DNA of 64,000 bases from Saccharofermentans sp. (GTDB taxonomy: Bacteria; Bacillota; Clostridia; Saccharofermentanales; Saccharofermentanaceae), in contig JAZLML010000076.1 in assembly GCA_045598625.1 (NCBI GenBank), forward strand, positions 15,525-79,524, in the 5' to 3' direction. The position numbers and the translations under genes are program-made. The notes under the pieces are model-generated. The model made no database searches. It saw only the letters and a program-made list of their open reading frames with translations, and was not told where the DNA came from. Numbering within the stretch: position 1 is the stretch's first letter; every line of letters starts with the position of its first letter. Below, piece by piece: positions 9,573 to 49,099 of this stretch.

Positions 9573-10628
9573 TTATTTAAGTCGTTTAAATCTCTCTATA
9601 TCGTCTTGTGTCAAAGACTTCTTCATGGAAAGACCTTCCTCGATATCGACATCGGTAATCTTGCCGTCACGAACGCAAACAAGTCTGTTAATTCTCTTCT
9701 CGAGAAGACAATCAACCGCATGCTCGGCCATAAGGCTTGCCATTACACGATCTCGCAAAGTAGGGCTTCCGCCTCTCTGAAGGTGACCCAAAATCGTAGG
9801 TCTTGCCTCAATTCCGGTTGCCTTCTCAATTTGTGCGGCAATCTCCGTAGCGGAACCCGCACCCTCGGCAACAATTACGATATAGTGTCTCTTATTCTTA
9901 TTTCTGCAATCGAGAATTACTCTCAAAATATCTCTGTCAAAGTCGAAATCCACTTCAGGAATTACAAGGCACTCGGCACCTGTTGCAATGCCTACGTTTA
10001 ATGCGATATATCCTGCGTGACGACCCATAACCTCGATAACGCTGCAACGCTCGTGAGAAGATGCCGTATCACGAAGCTTATCGATGGCTTCGATGGCCGT
10101 ATTCATGGAAGTATCGTAACCGATTGTATATTCCGTGGAAGCAATATCGTTATCGATAGTGCCCGGAATTCCGACAACCGGAACGCCGAGTCTGGCCAAA
10201 TCTCTTGCGCCCTTAAAGGAACCGTCGCCTCCGATTACTACCAAAGCATCCAAATCGTATACTTTGAGCATTTTCGCGCCCTGCAAAACTCCTTCCGGTG
10301 TCATGAAAGACTTGGAACGGGCGGTCATAAGGAAAGTACCGCCTTTCTGCAAGGTCTCGGATACGTCTCTTGTGGTAATCTGAGAAATCTCACCCTTCCA
10401 AAGACCGTGGTAACCTCTCGTAATACCGAAAACCTCGAGGCCGCTATTAATACCTGCACGAACTACGCCACGTATTGCCGCATTCATACCCGGTGCATCA
10501 CCGCCGCTCGTAAGAACGCCGATGCGCTTAATCTGAGGCAATTCCTCAGGCTTCATATCCTCAGCTTTAACAGCTTTAACTTTTCTGATTTCCGATACGT
10601 TATTCTCATCATATAAAAGGTTAACCAT
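9573..10628 (-). CDS. pfkA: ATP-dependent 6-phosphofructokinase
   Basis: TSGGDAPGMNAA, GGDGS and PGTIDND (ATP-type signature), MGRHAG, GHLQRGG; ~30-aa N-terminal extension. Confidence 0.96.
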   Translation of the reverse strand: MVNLLYDENNVSEIRKVKAVKAEDMKPEELPQIKRIGVLTSGGDAPGMNAAIRGVVRAGINSGLEVFGITRGYHGLWKGEISQITTRDVSETLQKGGTFLMTARSKSFMTPEGVLQGAKMLKVYDLDALVVIGGDGSFKGARDLARLGVPVVGIPGTIDNDIASTEYTIGYDTSMNTAIEAIDKLRDTASSHERCSVIEVMGRHAGYIALNVGIATGAECLVIPEVDFDFDRDILRVILDCRNKNKRHYIVIVAEGAGSATEIAAQIEKATGIEARPTILGHLQRGGSPTLRDRVMASLMAEHAVDCLLEKRINRLVCVRDGKITDVDIEEGLSMKKSLTQDDIERFKRLK

Positions 10629-31579: not shown

Positions 31580-32731
31580 TCAGTTTTCTTCCTCTGCCTC
31601 AACAACGGTAAACTCGTTTATGAAGTTCTCGCTCTCAACCTGAGATACCGTAGATCTTGTCTTGATATCAATCTTGCAGCCGGTAAGTCTTGCAGCCAAA
31701 CGAACATTCTGGCCTGATTTACCGATGGCAAGTGAGTACTGATCGTCTTCAACAACAACCTGAGCACGATTCTCGATTCTTCCGTCGTCTCTTGTAAATG
31801 TTTCAACGTCAACACTGTCAACCTTTGCAGGCTGCAAAGCTGCGCTTATGAACTCAGCAATGTTCTCGCTATAGTCAACGATATCAATCTTCTCGCCGCC
31901 CAACTCCTGCATAATCTGCTGAACTCTTTGTCCTCTTTGTCCTACGCAAGCACCCTTTGCATCGATGTTCTCGCCTCTTGAACGAACAGCAACTTTGGAA
32001 CGTGAACCCGGCTCACGGGATACAGCCATAATTACTACTTCGCCTGCAGCGATTTCAGGAATCTCAAGTTCAAAAAGTTTCTTAACGAGCTCAGGACTTG
32101 TTCTGGAAACACGAATGGAAGGGCGACCGTTATGCTCCTCAACACACTGTACAAGGAACTTCATGCTTGTGTTGTGGTCATATATCTCATTCTTAATCTG
32201 CTGATCCTTCGGAAGAACAGCCTCTGCTCTTGCGATATCAACATAAACATATCTTGAATCCTTACGTTGTACGATACCTGTTGCAATCTCACCGATTTTA
32301 TCTGAGAAATCGGAATAGATTCTGTTATACTCAGCATCTCTTACCTTCTGGGAGATTGCGCTCTTTGCAGCTGTAGCAGCAAGACGTCCGAGCTTATCAA
32401 CGTCGAGACCTACTTCAAGGGAGTCACCGAGTTCAACCTCATCGTCCATACCCTTAGCCTCTTCCAAAGAAATCTCGTTATCAGGATCCAAAACTTCCTC
32501 TACAACCTCAACGAGCTTATAAACGAAGATTTCACCTGTTTCTCTGTCGATTTCGGCACCTACATCGTTAATTCCCTTAGCACTGGAGAACTCACGACGG
32601 AAACCTGCTACGATACCATCTTCGATAGCCTGAAGCAATACTTCCTCATCAAGACCTCTCTCTTTTGCAAGCTCTTTTGCAACGGTCAAAAAATTCTCCT
32701 TAGGCTCAGAATTATCAGTCTTTTTAGCCAT
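31580..32731 (-). CDS. nusA: Transcription termination factor NusA
   Basis: SREPGSRSKVAV, ACVGQRGQRV, LAIGKSGQNVRLAARLTG. Confidence 0.98.
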   Translation of the reverse strand: MAKKTDNSEPKENFLTVAKELAKERGLDEEVLLQAIEDGIVAGFRREFSSAKGINDVGAEIDRETGEIFVYKLVEVVEEVLDPDNEISLEEAKGMDDEVELGDSLEVGLDVDKLGRLAATAAKSAISQKVRDAEYNRIYSDFSDKIGEIATGIVQRKDSRYVYVDIARAEAVLPKDQQIKNEIYDHNTSMKFLVQCVEEHNGRPSIRVSRTSPELVKKLFELEIPEIAAGEVVIMAVSREPGSRSKVAVRSRGENIDAKGACVGQRGQRVQQIMQELGGEKIDIVDYSENIAEFISAALQPAKVDSVDVETFTRDDGRIENRAQVVVEDDQYSLAIGKSGQNVRLAARLTGCKIDIKTRSTVSQVESENFINEFTVVEAEEEN

Positions 32732-33467: not shown

Positions 33468-33875
33468 ATGATTAAGATTATTGCAGGTGCTAAGGGAACG
33501 GGAAAGACGGCTAAGCTTGTTGAGGACATCAACAGTGTTGCCGTAGAAGACAACAATGTTGTATGCATTGAAAGAGGCAATCGTCTCGACCAGTTATTGA
33601 ATCACAATGTAAGGCTGATTAACATCACGGAGTATCCTTGTTCCGGTTTTGATCAGCTTCTTTCGTTTATCGGAGGAATTTGCTCAAAGGATTACGACCT
33701 TACACACATTTTTATTGACAGCATTAAGAAAGTTGCAAGCTGTGAGGATTTTGACCTCCTTAAGGATTTCCTCATCAAGCTCGACGCTTTCCTCGCTGAT
33801 AAGAACATCAACGTTACTCTCATTATGACATGTGACGTAGACTCACTTCCTGAAGAAATCAAGCAGTTTTGCTGA
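33468..33875 (+). CDS. Small P-loop NTPase-like hypothetical protein
   Basis: GAKGTGKT Walker A and HIFID Walker-B-like motif in 135 aa; RBS GGAG. Confidence 0.8.
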   Translation: MIKIIAGAKGTGKTAKLVEDINSVAVEDNNVVCIERGNRLDQLLNHNVRLINITEYPCSGFDQLLSFIGGICSKDYDLTHIFIDSIKKVASCEDFDLLKDFLIKLDAFLADKNINVTLIMTCDVDSLPEEIKQFC

Positions 33876-33911
33876 TTTGAATATTTAAAACATATCTAAG
33901 GAGTTGGTTTT

Positions 33912-34355
33912 ATGGGATTAATGAAGGATTTCAAAGAGTTTATCAGTAAAGGAAACGTTATCGATATGGCAGTCGGCGTTATCATCGGCGGTGCTTTCGG
34001 TAAAATCGTTACTTCACTCGTAAACGACATCATCATGCCGCCTATCGGTAAACTTATCGGCGGTATCGATTTCAATGACATGAAGGCTGTCCTTTCCCCT
34101 GCAGTTTTGGACGAAGCAGGAGAAATCGTTACACCTGAGAATGCAATCAGATACGGTACATTCATTAACACAATTCTTGAGTTTTTGATTATCGCCATCT
34201 GCATTTTCCTTGTAATCACAGCAATCAAGAAGGCTAACGAGAAGCTCGCTTCCATGAAGAAGAAGGAAGAAGAAGCTGCTGCAGAAGAGCCTGCTGAGCC
34301 TTCAGAGGAAGTTAAGCTTCTTACTGAGATCAGAGATGCTTTGAAGGATAAGTGA
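33912..34355 (+). CDS. mscL: Large-conductance mechanosensitive channel
   Basis: FKEFISKGNVIDMAVGVIIGGAF, LLTEIRD. Confidence 0.98.
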   Translation: MGLMKDFKEFISKGNVIDMAVGVIIGGAFGKIVTSLVNDIIMPPIGKLIGGIDFNDMKAVLSPAVLDEAGEIVTPENAIRYGTFINTILEFLIIAICIFLVITAIKKANEKLASMKKKEEEAAAEEPAEPSEEVKLLTEIRDALKDK

Positions 34356-34381
34356 TTTCTAATCCAATCATCAAAAACTAC

Positions 34382-34413
34382 GGACCGCTTCCTTTTGGAA
34401 ACGGTCCTTTTTT
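34382..34413 (+). terminator. Intrinsic terminator after mscL
   Basis: GGACCGCTTCC-tttt-GGAAACGGTCC-TTTTTT. Confidence 0.85.
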
Positions 34414-34458
34414 GTGTTCCGGAATTATCGCGAAAGAGATATCAAGATTTATTCCATT

Positions 34459-34640
34459 ACCTCTTAGTAGACTACATATGCTTTAGATTATATATATTTG
34501 TACTTTCGGAATACCCCAAAAGTGTCTTCACGTTTCTCTATTGAATATCGACTAGTCTCGGGCATCAGATTTGCCATCAAATGGGTGTCAAATGATGGCA
34601 ATATTGATGTCAAGGTGAAATAAGAGGTCCAAACACCCAT
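34459..34640. ncRNA. Candidate structured RNA/DNA element with possible pseudoknot
   Basis: Nested inverted repeats 34459-66/34621-28, 34469-74/34553-58, 34561-79/34593-611; hairpin-loop ATGGGTGT is complementary to ACACCCAT at 34633-40. Family unknown. Confidence 0.4.
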
Positions 34641-34735: not shown

Positions 34736-35251
34736 TCACTTTTTCTTCTTTTTCTTATCTCTATCCTTATCCTTGTTCTTTTTCTTGTCCTTATCCTTCT
34801 TTTTGCTCTTCTTACCCTTCTTAATTTCTTCCAAATCCGGGCTTACTATCAAAGACTTCGGCTCCGGAACGGAAGCTGTCTTTTTAAGAGCAGGAGCAGG
34901 CGCAGATACCTTCTTGACAGGAGATGCCGATACAGAAGGTTTTCTTGCTCTTACCGTCTTTACAATCGGTGGCTCTGAAAGAGATAAAACAAAGACCGAT
35001 AGTTCGTTTACTGTATCCTTGTTAATGGAATAGTATGTGCAACGTCCGTCTTTTCGAGCGGTGATAATCTCATACTCGGTAAGCTGATTCAAATGGTGGG
35101 ACAAAGTCGGTTGCGTAATACCGAACTCAGGCAAAATATCGATGGCACGAAGCTCACCCGCATTTGCAATTAGTTTTAAGATGCGAAGTCGCATAGGCTC
35201 CGACATAACTGAGAGTCTCTGAATCTTAAGTTCGGTCAAATTATCAGGCAT
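34736..35251 (-). CDS. ArsR/SmtB-family regulator with a Lys-rich C-terminal tail
   Basis: RLRILKLI, ITQPTLSHHL, RKDGR..YY winged HTH; tail KKGKKSKKKDKDKKKNKDKDRDKKKKKK. Confidence 0.88.
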   Translation of the reverse strand: MPDNLTELKIQRLSVMSEPMRLRILKLIANAGELRAIDILPEFGITQPTLSHHLNQLTEYEIITARKDGRCTYYSINKDTVNELSVFVLSLSEPPIVKTVRARKPSVSASPVKKVSAPAPALKKTASVPEPKSLIVSPDLEEIKKGKKSKKKDKDKKKNKDKDRDKKKKKK

Positions 35252-35264
35252 AAGTCCCTCCTGA

Positions 35265-35891
35265 TTATGCTATAAGCTGATCTTTCAAAGCTTCTTCAAA
35301 TTCCATAAGATTTGCGCAGGCAATAATCTCTGTGTTGTCCTCCAAAAGGATGTCATCCTCGCCGGAAACAAGAACAGTCATCGGAACACCGAGTTTTCGA
35401 AGAAGCAAAAGCTGGTATTCTTTACTTGCCTCAACTGAAAGGTACTTACAAAGCATTCTTAACACCTGCTTTGCGTCCTCGAGATATATTCCCGACTGAT
35501 GCATAAGACTGTCAACAACATACATTCCGAAAACGTCGTCAAAATCCAATACCTTCTTCTCCGGATAAACACTGGAGAAAGCCGTAAGTGCAAGCTTACT
35601 TACCAAGCCCAACTCATCGAAATCTCTAAATGGGATTTTAAAGCTCTTAACATTGGCAGAAAACAATTCGCGCATCTGCTCAACGGTTAAATCCTTCTTC
35701 AATTCTTTGATTCTGTCTATACGAGCGAAAATTTTCTCGCGCGGGAAGAAGGTCTCCTGACCTGTTGCCGTTGCCTTATGGATAAACCAGCACTCCGGAA
35801 TAAGGTTCATTCTCTTCCAACGATAAAGTGTTCCGTACGAAATACGGGCTGCACGTAAAAGTTGTTTCTTTGAAATCAATTCTTCCTGCAT
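35265..35891 (-). CDS. DUF4004 (YhbD-like) protein with a MerR-like N-terminus
   Basis: ISKKQLL..ISYGTLYRWKR.NLIP..WF..K.T.TGQETFFPR pattern. Confidence 0.8.
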   Translation of the reverse strand: MQEELISKKQLLRAARISYGTLYRWKRMNLIPECWFIHKATATGQETFFPREKIFARIDRIKELKKDLTVEQMRELFSANVKSFKIPFRDFDELGLVSKLALTAFSSVYPEKKVLDFDDVFGMYVVDSLMHQSGIYLEDAKQVLRMLCKYLSVEASKEYQLLLLRKLGVPMTVLVSGEDDILLEDNTEIIACANLMEFEEALKDQLIA

Positions 35892-36050
35892 ATCATCATC
35901 TCCAAAAAATATAGTTCCCGATATGCCTATTGTAATTCTCCTATGTTACAAATCAGAGTCACTGAGGTTTTATTCACAATGCAAATTGTTTCTTCCTACT
36001 CTCCGACAAAACCAGAGGTGCTGTCTGAAGAATTCCGAGAAGCCAGCTTA

Positions 36051-36464
36051 CAGTATAGATTTTGCGGAATTTGAATTTTCTATACTGCAAATCGCGAAAA
36101 CTAGGTTCATGACACAAGGAAAAGTAGTATAGAAACGTAGGAAATCAGGAAATAATGCTGCATTTTAAAAAAGCGTATAATGAGGTGCGAAAACATCTCA
36201 TCTATACGCCTTTTTGAAGAATCGACTCTTGGGAGATCCATGTATTTGTCAAATAAGCGTATAGATTATTCTTTATTTTCAAATCTATACGCTTTTGATG
36301 TTGCATCTAGGACAGTAACCCTAATCTGAAGTACCCAAAGGCGTATAGAATCGAAAAAAGCGTGGATTCTATACGCTTTTTACATCGCGGGGCATCTTAA
36401 GAACGTCCACAAAGAAGAAAAAAGCGTATAGATTAAAGCCCAAAAACCAATTCTATACGCTTTT
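36051..36464. repeat. Array of five ~36-bp palindromic units, four with an 84/84/83-bp period
   Basis: GCGTATA...TATACGC at 36173-209, 36257-292, 36341-376, 36424-460; variant CAGTATAGA...TCTATACTG at 36051-087. Confidence 0.9.
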
Positions 36465-36540
36465 ACTCAAAATCATTAAAAAGAAGTGCATCTAAGTAAA
36501 GAAAGCACAGCGGATTTGCAGAATTTCGATTTTTTCAGGA

Positions 36541-36581
36541 GAAAAAAGCTGTCCCAAAACCGCATTTCGGTTTGAGACAGC
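36541..36581 (-). terminator. Intrinsic terminator after the zinc-ribbon gene
   Basis: GCTGTC-cc-AAAACCG-cattt-CGGTTT-ga-GACAGC with an A-tract on the left. Confidence 0.7.
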
Positions 36582-36609
36582 ACCTTGTGAAATTCAATGT
36601 AACAAATTA

Positions 36610-37548
36610 TCAGATTACGGCACCGAAAATATCAAGAAATGCATCTACGATTCCGTATACGCCGCTCGGATTAATTGCATAAAGAACAATGCAAGCAGCA
36701 AAGAAAAGAATAATTCCGATGATGTAATAAGCGAGCAAAGCTCTTACAAACTTCTTTCTGTTCTGATTGTGACCTGCAAAAGAAAGAATAATTACTGCTA
36801 TAAAACCAGCTACAGGCACACCTGCAAGGAACAAAAGCCAGAAGTAAGAAGATGTCTTAAGTGGCTTAAACTGACTAGGAACGGAATCCTGAACAGCCTG
36901 TATTCTCTGCTGCTGCTCAAACTTAAGACGGCTCTTGTCAGCCTTATCCTGTGCCTTCTTGGCATCCTTCTGAGCTTTCTTCTCAAGCTTCTTGTCAAGC
37001 TTATCAAGCTTCTTCTGATTCTTCTCAGGAATGACCGCACCTGCTGCCGCTCCGGCAACTGCTGCCTCCGAAGGAATAACATCAAAAGCATCTGAAGGCA
37101 TTGTCTGCAAAGGCGCAGATTCAGAAACCGGTTCTGCCGTAACAGGAGCTGTCACAGGGGCTACAACAGGCGCTGCAACAGGAGCGCCAAAGCTCGGCTG
37201 TGGCTCGGCCGGTGCAGGAAAATCGAATACATCGGATGTAGCGTCCTCCACAAGAGGCTTAGTCTCAGGCACTGCAGGAATCACTTCCGGAATCTCTTCA
37301 GCTGCTTCTTCGGCTGCATCTTCAACTATTTCTTCAACAACCGCTTCCGTTACTTCTTCAGCCTCAACGATTTCTTCAGGAACCTCTTCTGCAGATACTG
37401 CAGGTTCTGATGAAGCTGCTTCATTAATTTCTTCTGATGCTTCCGAAACCGATGTTTCTTCGGCAACTATATCTTCAATTTTGGCTCCGCAGCCGGAACA
37501 AAATTTGCTTCCTTCAGCTACTTCGCTTCCGCAAGATGAACATACCAT
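36610..37548 (-). CDS. Zinc-ribbon membrane protein with an acidic Ala/Glu/Pro linker
   Basis: N-terminal CSSC...CSGC, long EEA/PA-rich region, Lys/Gln coil, two C-terminal TM helices. Confidence 0.85.
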   Translation of the reverse strand: MVCSSCGSEVAEGSKFCSGCGAKIEDIVAEETSVSEASEEINEAASSEPAVSAEEVPEEIVEAEEVTEAVVEEIVEDAAEEAAEEIPEVIPAVPETKPLVEDATSDVFDFPAPAEPQPSFGAPVAAPVVAPVTAPVTAEPVSESAPLQTMPSDAFDVIPSEAAVAGAAAGAVIPEKNQKKLDKLDKKLEKKAQKDAKKAQDKADKSRLKFEQQQRIQAVQDSVPSQFKPLKTSSYFWLLFLAGVPVAGFIAVIILSFAGHNQNRKKFVRALLAYYIIGIILFFAACIVLYAINPSGVYGIVDAFLDIFGAVI

Positions 37549-37607: not shown

Positions 37608-40600
37608 TTAATTTACTTCAAGGATAAGAATTTCGCCCGCCTGCAGGGTTTGTCTTGTTACGATTCGACCAAGTTTTCGAGTTGTAAGAAGTTCACCCGA
37701 ACTCGAATAGCGGCTTACCACAGAACCGTCCAAAGAAAGATTTATCCCCGAAAGAGTGAACTGCTGTTGCGTATCGGATGTATTTGCCACAACGAGATAA
37801 AGTCCGTTATCATTCTCGAAAAGGTACACTCCGACCTCCGAAGTGAACTCTTCTGCAGAATACTCAGCATTCTCATCAAGCGGGTCTGCAACGGTAACAC
37901 TTAATCTGGTTGAGTTTCCTATTGTACCCAAAGCTTCGATTGTATTAAACAGAGTGCTGAAATTTCTCATCTCAACAGCCGCATCCGGATACTGCTCGCA
38001 AAGTGCATCAAGATTCATGTCAGTCTCATAAAACGATCCGATATCGCTCACGGTTACATCTGCCGCAGGCATTCTGGTAAACAACGCTTCATCTGTAAGA
38101 AGTGCTGCCGCGTATCTTGCTGCCGTTATTTCCGTCGGACGCATGCCCGGAACCAAATCGTTACTGTTATATACGTACGAACTTATGCTTAACGAAGAAA
38201 TATATTCTCCGATATCGTTTCCTCTTCCCGTAAGTCTCGGAACCTGATAGTTAAAGTCAGAGTAGAGATTGTTGACATATGATATATAGTTAAAATCTTC
38301 GCTTGCCAAATCCTGCTCTATGTTCATCGAGAAAGCCCCCGCATGGAAGTCTGCACGCGACAATACCGTACCGCCGTCGTAGTTCATACCGTCCAAAAAC
38401 ACGACGCAGTCTTTTATATCTGTATAGTATTCGGACTGCTGAATTGCGCCGATAATATAATCTACATAGGCACTTCTCTGAAGATCGCTGTTAAACAAAT
38501 TGTTATCGTCATTTACTTCCACTACGATTTCCGAGAACTGTCTGTTCCATGGAACTGCCGTACCGTTATTTATTCTCATGATTCCATAGTCGGAAGATAC
38601 CGAACCGCAAAGATATTCCAAAGTCTTCTCTATGCTGTCGGCATTCGTATACGAATCGAAAACAAGCCACGGCAGAGCGTTTCCTGACTTGGCAAGACGC
38701 AAGGAAGTCTCGAGTTCTTTGAAATACGAACTGTCATTGGAAGATTCGGAGAGATTGTTGAATCTCATAATGTTAGGCGAAGCGCCTGTAATAATATCCT
38801 CAAAACCTTCCGGCAGTCCTTCTGAATCGTATTTATCAAAGCCCAAATAGATACCGTCTGCGTAAACACTTCCGATGCCGTCGAAAGAAATATTAAAGCG
38901 AATCTCATTCTCTCCTTTCAGCATGCTGTCCGTTACTGCAAACGTATAAGAATAAAGATTAAACTTGTCGCTTACTTCTTCGGCGGTAAATCCTATACCG
39001 TCTGCATTGGCGCCCGATATCCAAACATTAACCTTACCGTCCGAAAGATTTGTGGCTCTGAGCATTATATCGATTCGCATAAAGGAACCGTCAATAAAAA
39101 CATCTTTTCCGTTATTCGCAATAACCTGCGATACCGCATGAACACCTTCTCCGGAACCGCTCAACATAAGACTGTTCTCACCGAATCCCAAAGCGGCTTC
39201 ATCCGAAATAAGTGCCGTAGTTCCGTCACCGTAAGTTTCCCATGCATTTTCCATCGGAGTATTTACTTCCGACTCTATATAGCAAATATCTCCTTTTACC
39301 GTCTGATCCTCACCCAAAGCCTGATCCAAAGTAATAGAAGCGAAAAGTGATGTCTGATAAAGAGTGTTGTCCATATAAATAAACAGCTTGTTGTCTTTTC
39401 CGGCAAAAACTGCACGCTCTTCACCGATTTTCCCTACGAGAAGACGAAGTGTCTTATCTTCCGGACCAGTAACATACTCGTTTCCATAGCCGTCGGAAAG
39501 AATGGTCATACGGTTTCCCGTTACAACGATATACTGATTAGAATCGGGATTTATCGTAATCTGACCTTTCTCAAGAACTGTAATCTCATCACCGTCTTCC
39601 GCTATAGAAATGACATTTCCGTTATTGGTCAGAAGAACCGCACAATCCGAAGATGACGATACACACCTGACGCCGTCTGCACCGATTACTTCCTCAATTT
39701 CAGAGGCCTCCTCGAAAACCAAGCCGTTCCCGGTCGAGAAGCACTTGCCTTCTTTGGTAAAAACATAAAGTCTGTTATCGGTATTTATAACTTTGTCCGC
39801 AGTTCCCTCAATAAATACATCCGAAAACTCCGTACAACCGTCGGAACAGACAACCGATTTTCCGTTGTCGGAAATCACGAAAACCGTGTTCTTGATTGAA
39901 GCTACTCCCGTAATCGTTCCGAGTCCCGTAAAATCGTATGTAAGACCTCTGCTGAAATTGCGGCCGTCGGCCGAAGTATATAAAACACCTTCATCAGTCA
40001 CTGCGGTGAGGGTTTGTCCGTTTTTCGAAAGCCCTGCGAAAACAGGCTCAAATTCATCATATACATTGGCAAGTTCGCCCGAAGTAACATCTGATATAAG
40101 TTTTCCGGACTCGGTAATCGCTACAACGGATGAATCAGTGTTTATAAGCCTTACTATCGGATCTTGTGTCCAAAGCCAGCCTGAATCCTCAACTTCTTCG
40201 TTTGTACCGAACTGAAGTCTGCTGTAGTCCGTAACGTTAGCCTGAATACGAAGAAACATACGACCGCTCTCGTCGATGGAATAAATACGTGCGGTGCTGC
40301 CTATAAGTTGATTGGAATTAATCGTACCGTTAATACTGTCCGGCTTAATAAAAATCTTATCGCTTGAACCGTCGGCAACGGTAAAAACCGTAAACTCTGA
40401 AGACGCCTCGAACGAAGAATCTTCTATAAGATTATTGGAAGGAAGACGGTCAAAATTAAGTCCTATACCTTCGTAATTCTGAATATGATTACCGTTACGT
40501 TCGATTCGTATGCTGCAAAGTGAAGTATTTCTTCCGAGAACACCCGCACCGATAAGAACCACCAAAGCCATAGCAATGATGACAACAACGATTGAAAGGA

Positions 40601-40661
40601 GAACAAAAAATCTCCTTCTTCTTATTTGAAGAAACATATCAATCAAAGTTCCTTTTCTCAT
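37608..40661 (-). CDS. Large membrane-anchored extracellular protein: beta-propeller-like region plus GH51-like barrel (catalytic motif divergent)
   Basis: N-terminal RRRR plus TM; NNLIEDSSFE; Asp-box SADGRNF; PNIMRF, NALPWLVF, EYLCG...YG.MRINNG...PW, EVND. Family assignment by motif resemblance. Confidence 0.6.
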   Translation of the reverse strand: MRKGTLIDMFLQIRRRRFFVLLSIVVVIIAMALVVLIGAGVLGRNTSLCSIRIERNGNHIQNYEGIGLNFDRLPSNNLIEDSSFEASSEFTVFTVADGSSDKIFIKPDSINGTINSNQLIGSTARIYSIDESGRMFLRIQANVTDYSRLQFGTNEEVEDSGWLWTQDPIVRLINTDSSVVAITESGKLISDVTSGELANVYDEFEPVFAGLSKNGQTLTAVTDEGVLYTSADGRNFSRGLTYDFTGLGTITGVASIKNTVFVISDNGKSVVCSDGCTEFSDVFIEGTADKVINTDNRLYVFTKEGKCFSTGNGLVFEEASEIEEVIGADGVRCVSSSSDCAVLLTNNGNVISIAEDGDEITVLEKGQITINPDSNQYIVVTGNRMTILSDGYGNEYVTGPEDKTLRLLVGKIGEERAVFAGKDNKLFIYMDNTLYQTSLFASITLDQALGEDQTVKGDICYIESEVNTPMENAWETYGDGTTALISDEAALGFGENSLMLSGSGEGVHAVSQVIANNGKDVFIDGSFMRIDIMLRATNLSDGKVNVWISGANADGIGFTAEEVSDKFNLYSYTFAVTDSMLKGENEIRFNISFDGIGSVYADGIYLGFDKYDSEGLPEGFEDIITGASPNIMRFNNLSESSNDSSYFKELETSLRLAKSGNALPWLVFDSYTNADSIEKTLEYLCGSVSSDYGIMRINNGTAVPWNRQFSEIVVEVNDDNNLFNSDLQRSAYVDYIIGAIQQSEYYTDIKDCVVFLDGMNYDGGTVLSRADFHAGAFSMNIEQDLASEDFNYISYVNNLYSDFNYQVPRLTGRGNDIGEYISSLSISSYVYNSNDLVPGMRPTEITAARYAAALLTDEALFTRMPAADVTVSDIGSFYETDMNLDALCEQYPDAAVEMRNFSTLFNTIEALGTIGNSTRLSVTVADPLDENAEYSAEEFTSEVGVYLFENDNGLYLVVANTSDTQQQFTLSGINLSLDGSVVSRYSSSGELLTTRKLGRIVTRQTLQAGEILILEVN

Positions 40662-41656: not shown

Positions 41657-42046
41657 TTAAAAACTCTTGTATGATGTATTTTTTCCATATTTGTTAGAAC
41701 CCTTGGACTCATAATAACGCCTTATAAAGCAGTTAAATGCTCGGTCGAGCTCTTCCTCGTCTTTGATGGAAAGGAACTGCTGATTTCCTTTATCCGTAAA
41801 AACGGAACGCATAATTACGAGCTCGGGCTTATGGTGATTGCCGTTGTCGGGCTCATAATTATACATAACAACATATTCCTGTTTTGCTATAACGAAGGTG
41901 TCGATTACGGAAAGATAATAATCTTTTCCGCTCGAAACATCGCGAATGACGATTAAATCGTCATTCGCTTGTTTTTGACTGTTAATAACAGGCTTGGAAG
42001 CCTTAAATTTAGAGAAAAAACTCTTACTCTTTTGACTCGTCTTCAT
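41657..42046 (-). CDS. DUF1292-like protein (basic paralog)
   Basis: DVSSGKDYYLSVIDTFVIAKQEYVVM...ELVIM...LSIKDEEEL; start ATG 42046 overlaps the previous gene. Confidence 0.65.
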   Translation of the reverse strand: MKTSQKSKSFFSKFKASKPVINSQKQANDDLIVIRDVSSGKDYYLSVIDTFVIAKQEYVVMYNYEPDNGNHHKPELVIMRSVFTDKGNQQFLSIKDEEELDRAFNCFIRRYYESKGSNKYGKNTSYKSF

Positions 42047-46963: not shown

Positions 46964-47041
46964 TGTATTAATGCAAATTCCGCTTTATCGGAACGCTGAT
47001 TCCGACTTAGCGGTACGCAGTTCCGCTTCGTTCGGTACAGC
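46964..47041. repeat. IS21 terminal region with three subterminal repeats
   Basis: TTCCG-N6/7-CGG(A/T)AC starting at 46978, 47000 and 47021. Confidence 0.8.
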
Positions 47042-47065
47042 ATTAAAATAAACAGCATGCCGCCA

Positions 47066-47615
47066 TACAATGGTAGATTTTCTTGAGTCGCGAGTTTCAA
47101 TAATCTCAAAGAGATCTCTGCACTTATCCAGATCAAGTTCCATAAGACCAAAGTCATCGATTACAAGTAAGTCATAGGAAGACATCTCGTTTGTATATTC
47201 ATAACTCGAATTCATTTTACGAGCTTTCTCACTTTCTTGAAGCAAAGCATTAGCACGGATATACTTCACAGTTCGTAATTGTTGTAATGCTGTAACACAT
47301 AAAGCATTGGCTATATGTGTTTTTCCTGCTCCGGCACTCCCGGTTATCAGAAGATTCTTCGGTTCGTCAATCCAATTGCACGTCTGAAGTTTTTCTATAG
47401 TATGGGTATCGAGCATCCTGTCAGGTTCGTACAGCGACTCGTCAAAGTCAGCGTGAGGATACTTCAATGTTGCCTTACGCAGTAGTTTGTTGAACTTTGT
47501 GCTCTGACGCTTCTGCCATATGTGAAAGTTTGAATTTGAACAGTCTGTCCATAAGTATATTTTCTTCTATTGTTAACTTTGAATTGTACGTGTAATCCTT
47601 TTGTTTATATGCCAT
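47066..47615 (-). pseudogene. istB: istB ATPase pseudogene (internal deletion/frameshift, 3' truncated)
   Basis: MAYKQ...LSHMAEA in one frame, WQKRQSTKFNKLLRKATLKYP...GSAGAGKT...LVIDDFG...RKSTIV in another; lacks the normal C-terminus. Confidence 0.88.
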
Positions 47616-47626
47616 TGTCTTATACC

Positions 47627-48195
47627 TTATTTGTAGAAATTTCCTCTAATATTCTCGTGTGTAGGCAGTGCCTCATCTGAGGTTATGGTTCCTGACTGCA
47701 TCTTTCCGAGAATCTGCTTGAATGTTTTGTATTTACATGAATTCATCTCAACGCATTGGCGAGCTGCCTCTTCAGCTATTCCGTGTGGAATATCCTTAAC
47801 CGAATGTAGAATTCCTGCACAGGAGTTATACGATTGTTCTTCATGCTTAGACGATTTAAGGATTCGGTCTATAAATTCCAACATGTTAGGACCAAATACA
47901 GATGCCCATCGCCTGTAATATGCACCGTCCTTGGAATTGACTTCTTTGTAGTATAGATGTTCCGGTCTCATGTGACTGTCTTCGGTAATGTAGCGAGGAA
48001 AGTCTCTGTAAGAACGATTGTGTTTACATAACAAGCGATTGTAACTGTCGCAGATTCTTATTTCTGTATGTGTAGCTTTTAGGATTGCAGGCTTTCCGCA
48101 CTGTGTGTAAACTACGGAGTAGTAGTGGCCATCGTACTCTATATGGTAGTTATCAGGAACCTTGCTTTTTGCTTTGTAATCACATAAGATGGGGC
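47627..48195 (-). pseudogene. istA: istA transposase C-terminal fragment
   Basis: KVPDNYHIEYDGHYYSV...H.R.Y...HENIRG; first ~20 aa of the called ORF are not transposase-like; no DDE region. Confidence 0.85.
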
Positions 48196-48232
48196 TCAAT
48201 CCCAAAGACAAGGAATGACATGAGGAAGATTT

Positions 48233-49099
48233 ATGGATGTACACGTTGATTATTTTCATGAGTTAATCAAACAGGAATGGGGTTATTCCTGTTATAAAAA
48301 CGAGTTTGATGATGCGCAATTAGATATCAAAGCGGCGAATTCAGATGTTGCCGGATCCATCAGGTATATCAGTGATATCGATAAACTTGCTGATCACCCG
48401 GAAGTAAAATCTGTAAGGATTTTTGCATTGGATCAAGATACATTTGAGTACTTTATCAACAAATACGGCCGGCAGTTACGATATATACATTTTTACAGTA
48501 ATAAATCTGTTGAAGACTGGTCTTTGCTTGGGACTCTTCCAGATCTCGAATGTGTAAACTGGTTTCATAATCAGAAGATAGACAGATTGTGGGACATGAG
48601 CCGGAACTATTCTTTGAAAGCACTTAAGATCAGTGATTTCAGCAAGCTGCATTCTATCTCGGGAATCGAGAAGGCTCCTGCTCTCGAATGGGTTGAGTTC
48701 GGAGATGCCATTTGGCGCACATCAGAAATAGAAAGCTTAAAACCTCTTGAAAACACCGGGATTCGCAGAATAAACTTTTCAGGAAAAAAGATTAGTGATA
48801 TGGATGTATCATGTATTCCCAATATGGAAAAACTGGAAGTGTTTGACTGTCCGACAAATCTGTTTACCACGGAAGAGATCGCGTGGATCGTTGCAAAATG
48901 TCCGGGACTGGAAGGCTATGCATTACGACCATATCTCGACTATATGATATATAACGAAAAAACACACAAAGCCGATATACCGGGTGTAATGATTATCGGA
49001 AAAAGAAAGCCTACATTTGCAATTGAAGGAAATGAGAAGAAACTTGAAAAATACGTTTCTCAATTCGACAGTTTAGTAGATAAATACCGCACAGAATAA
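48233..49099 (+). CDS. Leucine-rich-repeat-like protein (no signal peptide)
   Basis: Repeated LxxLxx-like blocks (LRYIHF, LECVNW, LKALKI, LEWVEF, LEVFD); RBS GAGGA. Confidence 0.75.
   Translation: MDVHVDYFHELIKQEWGYSCYKNEFDDAQLDIKAANSDVAGSIRYISDIDKLADHPEVKSVRIFALDQDTFEYFINKYGRQLRYIHFYSNKSVEDWSLLGTLPDLECVNWFHNQKIDRLWDMSRNYSLKALKISDFSKLHSISGIEKAPALEWVEFGDAIWRTSEIESLKPLENTGIRRINFSGKKISDMDVSCIPNMEKLEVFDCPTNLFTTEEIAWIVAKCPGLEGYALRPYLDYMIYNEKTHKADIPGVMIIGKRKPTFAIEGNEKKLEKYVSQFDSLVDKYRTE

Follow-up and report, generated by a model that had tools for sequence, protein, structure and literature searches.

Among the small repeats dispersed through bacterial genomes, BOX elements are built as boxA-boxB(n)-boxC, i.e., from end modules and from internal units that vary in number, and repetitive extragenic palindromes (REPs) are known mostly from Proteobacteria. 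BOX, SPRITE and RUP of Streptococcus pneumoniae are small, non-coding, multicopy, intergenic and stem-loop-rich elements of a Gram-positive bacterium; SPRITE was named for its rho-independent-terminator-like form, and the pneumococcal elements cluster and nest (PMC10969869). BrickBuilt of Porphyromonas gingivalis is a transposable element of the miniature inverted-repeat type (MITE) with small inverted-repeat ends, which is always intergenic, occurs in ~19 copies per genome and carries leader and tail modules around an internal tandem array of variable length (PMC4596501). REPs, together with the bacterial interspersed mosaic elements (BIMEs) that they form, are described as imperfect extragenic palindromes of 20-40 nt with conserved stems, regularly spaced mosaic clusters and linker motifs, for which roles in termination and mRNA stability have been proposed (PMC2817692, PMC3733652). 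Here, we analyze a stretch of 64,000 nucleotides from Saccharofermentans sp. (contig JAZLML010000076.1; “the window”), in which an array of phased hairpins separates two genes. The array is probably the interior of a larger element of ~570 bp, which we read as a non-autonomous, non-coding, multicopy and modular MITE-like element bounded by terminal inverted repeats (TIRs). A preliminary description of the array had called it the best candidate for an undescribed system in the window; the repeat family is indeed undescribed, but it is of a known general kind, and that wording was too strong.

In build, BOX, SPRITE, BrickBuilt and REP/BIME appear to be the closest architectures. The element is set apart from BOX and SPRITE by its host and probably by its sequence, and the boxB copies of BOX are near-identical direct repeats. 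The interior of BrickBuilt is a spacer-less 23-nt minisatellite with promoter activity (PMC4596501), whereas the array in the window consists of phased palindromes with non-repetitive 47-nt linkers and gave no promoter signal. It differs from all elements compared in that its spacing is strictly kept although no more than 2 x 13 nt are shared within each 84-bp unit.

Phased hairpins between inverted-repeat ends

The array sits in a 718-bp gap between two minus-strand genes (Table 1). The pattern GCGTATA-N(18-26)-TATACGC matches four times in the window and in none of 100 dinucleotide-preserving shuffles. The four palindromes read GCGTATA-N22/23-TATACGC, span 37, 36, 36 and 37 bp, and start 84, 84 and 83 bp apart, exactly where they had been placed before. 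Their shared arms extend to AAAAGCGTATAGA / TCTATACGCTTTT, and inner stems pair past these arms, over 8 bp plus a bulge in unit 1 and over 2-3 bp in units 2-4. On either strand, folding energies of the single units lie between -14.5 and -20.8 kcal/mol, with z from -5.4 to -7.7; unit 1 forms a 15-bp stem with one bulge (-18.2/-18.5 kcal/mol). The fifth unit reported further upstream with changed arms (unit 0) is real, though its fold is weaker than those of units 1-4 (z -2.9/-4.9). The units are near-perfectly symmetric, so that their orientation cannot be defined.

Between the arms, the units have little in common: in a MAFFT alignment, conservation is limited to the arms, and the scores of linker pairs do not exceed those of shuffles, apart from linkers 2 and 4 (p=0.02), which share the GCATCT motif. 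No tandem repeat was detected in the array by Tandem Repeats Finder (TRF). The objection that the array is a simple decayed tandem duplication was therefore not upheld, and this candidate was ruled out by the blank TRF result and the unalike linkers. Isolated single units are absent from the remainder of the window, the GTGCATCTAAG motif is not enriched within it, and no tRNA-like structure was found in the array. The best Rfam matches, mir-927 and trpB, were at chance level, with 21-27 bits against gathering scores of 59-60; as all matches lay below threshold, a known RNA family was rejected.

The stretch is present in only three public runs (X1-X3), which come from a single gut-metagenome study. 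Their Logan contigs were aligned at ≥80% likeness to the 10 kb around the array, with depth taken as the assembler's word depth. In addition, 14 related loci were compared, which surround DUF4004 proteins 88-100% identical to the one encoded beside the array. The 11-mer AGGTGCTGTCT occurs in perfect form only at 36016 (+) and 36575 (-) in the 64 kb, within a 14-nt inverted repeat that has one mismatch. This TIR becomes convincing because its position agrees with contig break points and with the points where homology to relatives is lost. At the left end, 36016/36018 is abutted by at least five A-rich flanks that differ from each other, on contigs of 148-1301 nt. On the right, other contigs diverge after 36581 (ends at 36581-36583) with at least two other flanks, and depth drops from 36-50x to 6x at 36584; overall, the excess of depth is limited to 36014-36583. 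In the three related loci whose flank DNA was compared (L001, L002 and L006), it is ~86-90% identical to the window; homology is lost at 36582 and at 35996, and 185 unrelated bp lie in between. L001-type loci have only 318 bp between the two genes. The array, even a single arm of it, is absent from 14/14 related loci, including those with a 99-100% identical protein, which answers in the negative the earlier suggestion to look for it in related genomes. A clean empty site was not found in the related loci.

No open reading frame (ORF) in the element exceeds 69 aa, and the longest open frame across the array has no homologue in a protein search. The element is thus non-coding and, at less than ~600 bp, small, has terminal inverted repeats and shares its ends between copies with different flanks, as is characteristic of MITEs, the last of these points resting on metagenome contigs. 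The enclosing element at 36016-36585, its absence in relatives and templated correction as a source of covariation (see below) had all been missed by the preliminary description.

Table 1. Features of the predicted element and its neighbors (window coordinates).
Feature	Coordinates	Strand	Description
Whole non-coding repeat element, ~570 bp	36016..36585	.	Hairpin array as interior; inverted repeats at ends
Left terminal inverted repeat	36016..36029	+	AGGTGCTGTCTGAA; 14 nt, 93% complementary to 36572-36585
Unit 0	36051..36087	.	Altered arms CAGTATAGA / TCTATACTG, 19-nt loop; low copy, ~1-5x host depth
Orphan half-arm	36124..36133	+	GTAGTATAGA
Unit 1	36167..36215 (pattern match 36173-36209)	.	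AAAAAAGCGTATA-ATGAGGTG-CGAAAA-CATCTCAT-C-TATACGCCTTTTT
Unit 2	36251..36296 (pattern match 36257-36292)	.	Perfect 13-bp stem AAGCGTATAGATT/AATCTATACGCTT, 14-nt loop, T4 tail
Unit 3	36337..36381 (pattern match 36341-36376)	.	Stem 12-16 bp; loop GAAAAAAGCGTG
Unit 4	36418..36464 (pattern match 36424-36460)	.	Perfect 13-bp stem AAAAGCGTATAGA/TCTATACGCTTTT, 19-nt loop
Tail motif, conserved	36486..36509	+	GTGCATCTAAGTAAAGAAAGCAC; in shorter form (GCATCT) also at 36303 and 36395
Intrinsic terminator, predicted	36542..36584	-	In right end; stem GCTGTCTCAAACCG/CGGTTTTGGGACAGC + T6
Right terminal inverted repeat	36572..36585	-	Reverse complement AGGTGCTGTCTCAA
ArsR-family gene	34736..35251	-	Follows DUF4004 gene
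DUF4004/YhbD MerR-like regulator	35265..35891	-	Neighbor, outside element; PF13171, 2.6e-60
Zinc-ribbon membrane protein gene	36610..37548	-	Neighbor, outside element; transcript would end in the element's predicted terminator

Copy number, modularity and possible rewriting of loops

The flanking genes are covered at ~5x in X1, 0-4x in X2 and 0-6x in X3, with the exception of a few conserved stretches at 15-42x (31668-32001 and 33672-34339). The two 334-bp bins that contain the element reach 117-120x (X1), 21-31x (X2) and 22-39x (X3), with local peaks of 393x and 147x, such that, within the same samples, element sequence exceeds the host chromosome in depth by a factor of ~15-70. Related species with a single array at the same locus are not the source of this excess, because conserved neighbors such as nusA do not rise with it. 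The array is split over dozens of mutually different contigs of 31-233 nt (74 in X1), as repeat families usually are in a de Bruijn graph, and unit 4 alone has at least five loop variants in one sample, with a summed depth of up to 393x versus ~5x for the flanks. Contigs that join a part of the element to an unlike flank are 148-2536 nt long and lie at 4.7-7.9x in X1, which equals host-like depth and suggests paralogous copies in the same or equally abundant genomes.

An abundant phage or plasmid replicon from which a fragment was captured, i.e., an origin, a partition site or another phased protein-binding array, might also raise the depth. On such an array, a dimeric protein would occupy half-sites 29-30 bp apart, in units held in helical phase (84 bp correspond to 8 turns). 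The variation of the depth excess between samples, from ~15x to 70x host, would fit a carrier that is not strictly chromosomal, and the half-site sequence is invariant, the spacing fixed and the 47-nt linker length kept in a paralog at 65% linker identity. We nevertheless regard this origin as distinctly unlikely: the foreign-flank variant contigs have host-like depth and many different flanks, the array has no match in IMG/VR, INPHARED or PLSDB, no replication or partition genes lie nearby, and inner-stem pairing as well as A/T-run tails favor hairpins over plain duplex sites. A phage or plasmid origin was rejected on the absence of a blastn match, and a comparison of the linkers with phage and plasmid collections, as proposed at the outset, gave no match either.

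Other copies differ from the one in the window by whole modules. One contig joins 36222 to 36341 via 34 other letters, which amounts to the net loss of exactly one 84-bp unit; its linker keeps the 47-nt length and shows ~65% identity to linker 1. A second contig connects 36056 with 36200, and in a further copy a unit 0-like hairpin directly abuts unit 1 (loose end at 36161). Several paralog contigs with different tails after unit 4 rejoin CAGTGCATCTAAGCAAAGAAAGCAC / CAGTGCATCTGAGC / CAGTGCATCCAAGC. A comparison of unit number and linker content, which had been suggested between strains, shows a difference between copies, with one Logan variant that lacks one unit. The loops and linkers had been called unique apart from GCATCT, which applies within the window; in the source metagenomes, however, near-copies of the linkers are multicopy, and linkers are 65-95% conserved between copies.

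These mosaics also resemble a REP/BIME-type cluster, in which the palindromes would be independent of each other, a HUH/Y1 enzyme encoded elsewhere (REP-associated tyrosine transposase (RAYT)- or IS200/IS605-like) would act on the single-stranded DNA hairpin, the cluster would have grown by local duplication, and the outer inverted repeat would be incidental. The units are imperfect extragenic palindromes of 36-37 nt with conserved stems, variable loops and occasional bulges, the hairpins form a multicopy mosaic with linkers conserved between copies, and units are more abundant than either end module; BIMEs are likewise described as regularly spaced REPs (PMC2817692). Of the four options offered by the preliminary description, this was the nearest, as far as multicopy mosaics of extragenic palindromes are concerned, but the tag is lacking and a larger, TIR-bounded element encloses the units. 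GTAG or CGTC tags at the foot of the hairpin sort most REPs into two super-families (PMC3733652), whereas the arms start with (A)AAAGCGTATAGA and the sole GTAG is that of the orphan half-arm at 36124. REP/BIMEs are mobilized by RAYT, a Y1 transposase whose gene is usually REP-flanked; none was found among the 37 window ORFs scanned (a look for a co-occurring Y1/RAYT transposase or tyrosine recombinase had been suggested by the preliminary description), and no isolated units occur elsewhere in the 64 kb. REPs often number >100 per genome, compared to ~15-70 host-genome equivalents here by contig depth, possibly across several genomes, and REP orientation alternates, whereas here the units are symmetric and the linkers are conserved between copies, not between units. 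Sharp common ends at an outer inverted repeat would be unexpected for a REP cluster. We consider this explanation unlikely.

Variation is unevenly distributed over the array: of 31 variant positions in 36172-36480, 16 lie in loops or inner stems and 0 in the 68 arm-core positions (binomial 4.5e-4). Quasi-palindrome correction, a template switching within or between hairpins, is a known mutational mechanism. In the window, an 11/11 copy of the letters before and at the start of the unit 4 arm lies within the unit 3 loop, while the abundant paralog has AAGGAAATCACG as its unit 3 loop; from the letters, the seven clustered changes look like one templated event. The paralog of unit 1 reads GCGTATAGAAAGGCGCAAAAGCATCTCATCTATACGC, without the 8-bp inner stem of the window copy, and inner-stem covariation is hence not a conserved property of the family. 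The covariation proposed earlier does hold as pairing within the window, but it is not kept in this paralog and is as well explained by quasi-palindrome correction as by selection.

The regular spacing had also led to a comparison with CRISPR arrays and with attC sites of integrons. A conserved element at regular intervals with dissimilar sequence between, and a structure more conserved than the loop sequence, would indeed be in line with an acquisition array of either type, but both are effectively refuted: the linkers are multicopy and homologous between copies, and the repeats are not identical over their full length but consist of 2 x 9-13 nt. No cas or integrase gene is present among the 37 window ORFs scanned (the absence of cas had been correctly stated before), and “cassettes” of 47 bp are unable to encode anything. 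The arms do not fit what we take to be the R/L-box consensus of attC, so that the attC-like option fails on consensus, cassette content and integrase alike.

A further explanation is that the unit order is partly an assembly artefact, with paralogous copies collapsed or chimerically joined. The region is multicopy and fragmented into Logan contigs of 31-233 nt, and no X1 contig at ≥99% likeness covers 36231-36293, so that the order in the window could be partly chimeric. However, X1-X3 are not necessarily the sample of origin, exact-match contigs at host depth run from the unique left flank into unit 1 (36015-36185) and from unit 4 into the unique right flank (36453-36527 and 36499-36859), and in X3 one contig of 233 nt follows units 1 to 4 colinearly, with 20 substitutions but without gaps. 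A misassembled order is thus very unlikely.

Several observations weigh against a dispersed, TIR-bounded element. An 11-nt inverted repeat with more than 100 bp between its two copies is present in ~7% of the shuffled versions of the intergenic region, and this copy has no target-site duplication (flanks ...AAAACCAG / TTGTGAAA). An autonomous parent element or a transposase with matching ends was found neither among the 37 window ORFs nor in plasmid and phage collections, and the remaining 63 kb of the window hold no second copy of the element. The evidence for copy number and dispersal is the word depth of short contigs in three metagenomes, with the other copies known only indirectly, and the copies could reside in other genomes or on an extrachromosomal element of the same communities. 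Moreover, the left-end module including unit 0 is present at 1-5x host depth versus 25-70x for the units, which implies either that many copies have other ends or that units also exist outside such elements. Database searches add to this: a strict two-unit pattern found no array among 185,579 GTDB species representatives, only two chance-level matches in unrelated phyla, and a strict single-unit pattern found four unrelated terminators and no array in JGI metagenomes. IMG/VR yielded 66 singleton hairpins and no array, PLSDB and INPHARED no blastn match, and no RNA run among those searched holds the array stretch. Following from these blanks, the family either has a very narrow distribution or assembles poorly. 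No match was obtained with three window proteins in exact look-ups.

Terminator-like anatomy and the DUF4004-ArsR locus

In every unit, the stable hairpin is followed by T4-T5 on the plus strand, and units 1 and 4 have T6 on the minus strand. Each unit has an A-run upstream and G-C pairs at the stem base beside the U-run, i.e., the bidirectional form, and judged by this anatomy the hairpins look like bidirectional terminators. They share these traits, at -14 to -21 kcal/mol, with intrinsic (rho-independent) terminators, but differ from them by loops of 12-19 nt, AT-rich stems and one arm sequence that recurs in every unit. Loops of this size are atypical compared to the ordinary terminators of the window (e.g., 41942-41968), and a simple terminator scan did not call the units. 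The loop size and the identical arm sequence exceed what termination requires. The terminator predicted in the right end is canonical, with a 14-bp stem followed by UUUUUU (-23.6 kcal/mol over a 71-nt stretch); it adjoins, just downstream, the stop codon of the zinc-ribbon membrane protein gene (ORF end 36610), and the stretch that bears it is itself multicopy (50-67x in X1).

Human-gut phage contigs (L084 at 9845-9882 and ~20 IMG/VR loci, e.g., L014-L018) share a terminator, GCGTATAGGCGACTTGTTTTTATCGCCTATACGC, which in L084 lies between the end of a tyrosine-recombinase-like gene and a tRNA. This likeness is taken as chance, because nothing beyond the 8-nt arm ends that were searched for is shared and the hairpin is single-copy per contig.

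Given this anatomy, the array might be a local RNA device, either a set of tandem small-RNA genes or a multi-terminator insulator or attenuator for the DUF4004-ArsR operon. In addition to the T-runs on both strands, its position between the 3' end of one gene and the promoter of the next would suit such a role. However, the array is missing from all related loci, which keep a promoter palindrome of their own, the linkers have no promoter-like sites beyond chance, and no Rfam family matches. The loops are atypical, units are multicopy elsewhere, and the characterized DUF4004 site is unlike the arms. We therefore hold a local device to be extremely unlikely, and the processed small-RNA array or phased protein scaffold considered previously is without support from the promoter scan or Rfam.

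The palindrome of the related loci lies closely upstream of the DUF4004 start in all 14 of them and differs from the arms; in the window it reads TTGTAA-N10-TTACAA, with perfect 6+6 symmetry, at 35930-35951. It is kept as TTTGTAACAT...TTACAAT even in relatives that are only 86-89% identical (L001-L013, L086). It is a better candidate than the arms for an autoregulatory operator of DUF4004, whose regulator family is poorly known. The characterized DUF4004 site, that of Cap0037, is ATATTTTCATATAAAT (PMC5050335). The array as DUF4004 operator was rejected, since related loci keep the gene and its own palindrome without the array and the Cap0037 site is unlike the arms.

The homologues of the DUF4004 protein carry the source names Saccharofermentans sp. 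or Clostridiales metagenome-assembled genomes. The ArsR-family regulator carries a C-terminal tail, KKGKKSKKKDKDKKKNKDKDRDKKKKKK, that is long, rich in lysine and histone-like; its gene and the DUF4004 gene always form a pair. In relatives, Fur and rubrerythrin genes come after this pair; they are missing in the window. Between mscL and the ArsR gene, a gap contains a long imperfect palindrome (CATCAGATTTGCCATCA ... TGATGGCAATATTGATG) at 34560-34610, where Logan contigs have “going-back” joints and alternative G/C-rich centers, e.g., GCAGCCCCCCCTTC, i.e., a second variable-loop hairpin; L001-type relatives carry an extra 176-aa gene in this gap. Just after mscL, 34261-34419 (+) matches the Rfam family of the ribosomal protein L20 leader below threshold (32.4 bits vs. 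a gathering score of 58.7, E 0.0011), with no infC-rpmI-rplT nearby, and is probably the mscL terminator region. On the other side of the array, 37608-40661 (-) encodes a 1017-aa protein with an N-terminal membrane anchor and no Pfam match, which lies beside the zinc-ribbon gene in L001-type relatives, too.

The other scanned ORFs are ordinary chromosomal genes (nusA-infB-rbfA-truB-ribF, dnaE, uvrB, prfA, metG and others; three are without Pfam match), and cas, integrase and Y1 transposase genes are absent from all 37. The sole transposon-related ORFs among these are insertion sequence IS21-type fragments at 46985-48259, ~10 kb away, namely an IstB-like ORF of 160 aa (profile positions 60-190/238) and an ORF of 210 aa with a Mu-transposase C-terminal domain only. 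A leucine-rich repeat (LRR) protein gene (48233-49099) abuts them; no link of the fragments to the hairpin element was seen.

Proposed spread and significance of the repeat family

The MITE-like element would be built from a left-end module, a variable number of 84-bp units, each consisting of a hairpin with invariant arms and a 47-nt linker, and a right-end module with a canonical intrinsic terminator. It may spread, or may formerly have spread, in the manner of MITEs through a transposase encoded elsewhere that recognizes its ends, while the number of units might shift by recombination between identical arms. Loops and inner stems might be rewritten by template switching within or between hairpins, which would produce the apparent covariation. 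The arms could be kept identical by serving as repeated binding sites, for a mobilizing enzyme or a host factor, or by gene conversion. Once transcribed, the hairpins may act as bidirectional terminators or 3'-end stabilizers; at this locus, the element would provide a terminator for the upstream zinc-ribbon gene and insulate the DUF4004-ArsR operon. As far as can be read from the sequence, insulation is plausible, with four to five more hairpins before the DUF4004-ArsR promoter, although it is not a selected local function, because the relatives do without the element.

There is a slim chance that the invariant arms are the sites of a dedicated hairpin- or half-site-specific protein that builds and keeps up the arrays unit by unit. 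If this were true, the 84-bp (8-turn) phasing and the fixed 47-nt linker would be functional, and the dispersed arrays would represent a phased nucleoprotein scaffold or a substrate of structure-specific recombination, i.e., a new kind of system and not a decaying MITE.

As a MITE-like element, the array would represent a repeat family new to an uncultured Clostridia lineage of gut or rumen (Saccharofermentans-like), a group from which we know of no described small dispersed repeats, the literature not having been surveyed. Its build is unusual, with inverted-repeat ends around phased palindromes whose arm cores are invariant while the rest drifts. Such elements break short-read assemblies and may pass for CRISPR-like arrays or regulatory sites. 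At the same time, the family is a natural data set for the homogenization of short inverted repeats and for quasi-palindrome correction, and it illustrates how ready-made terminators and insulators land between genes.

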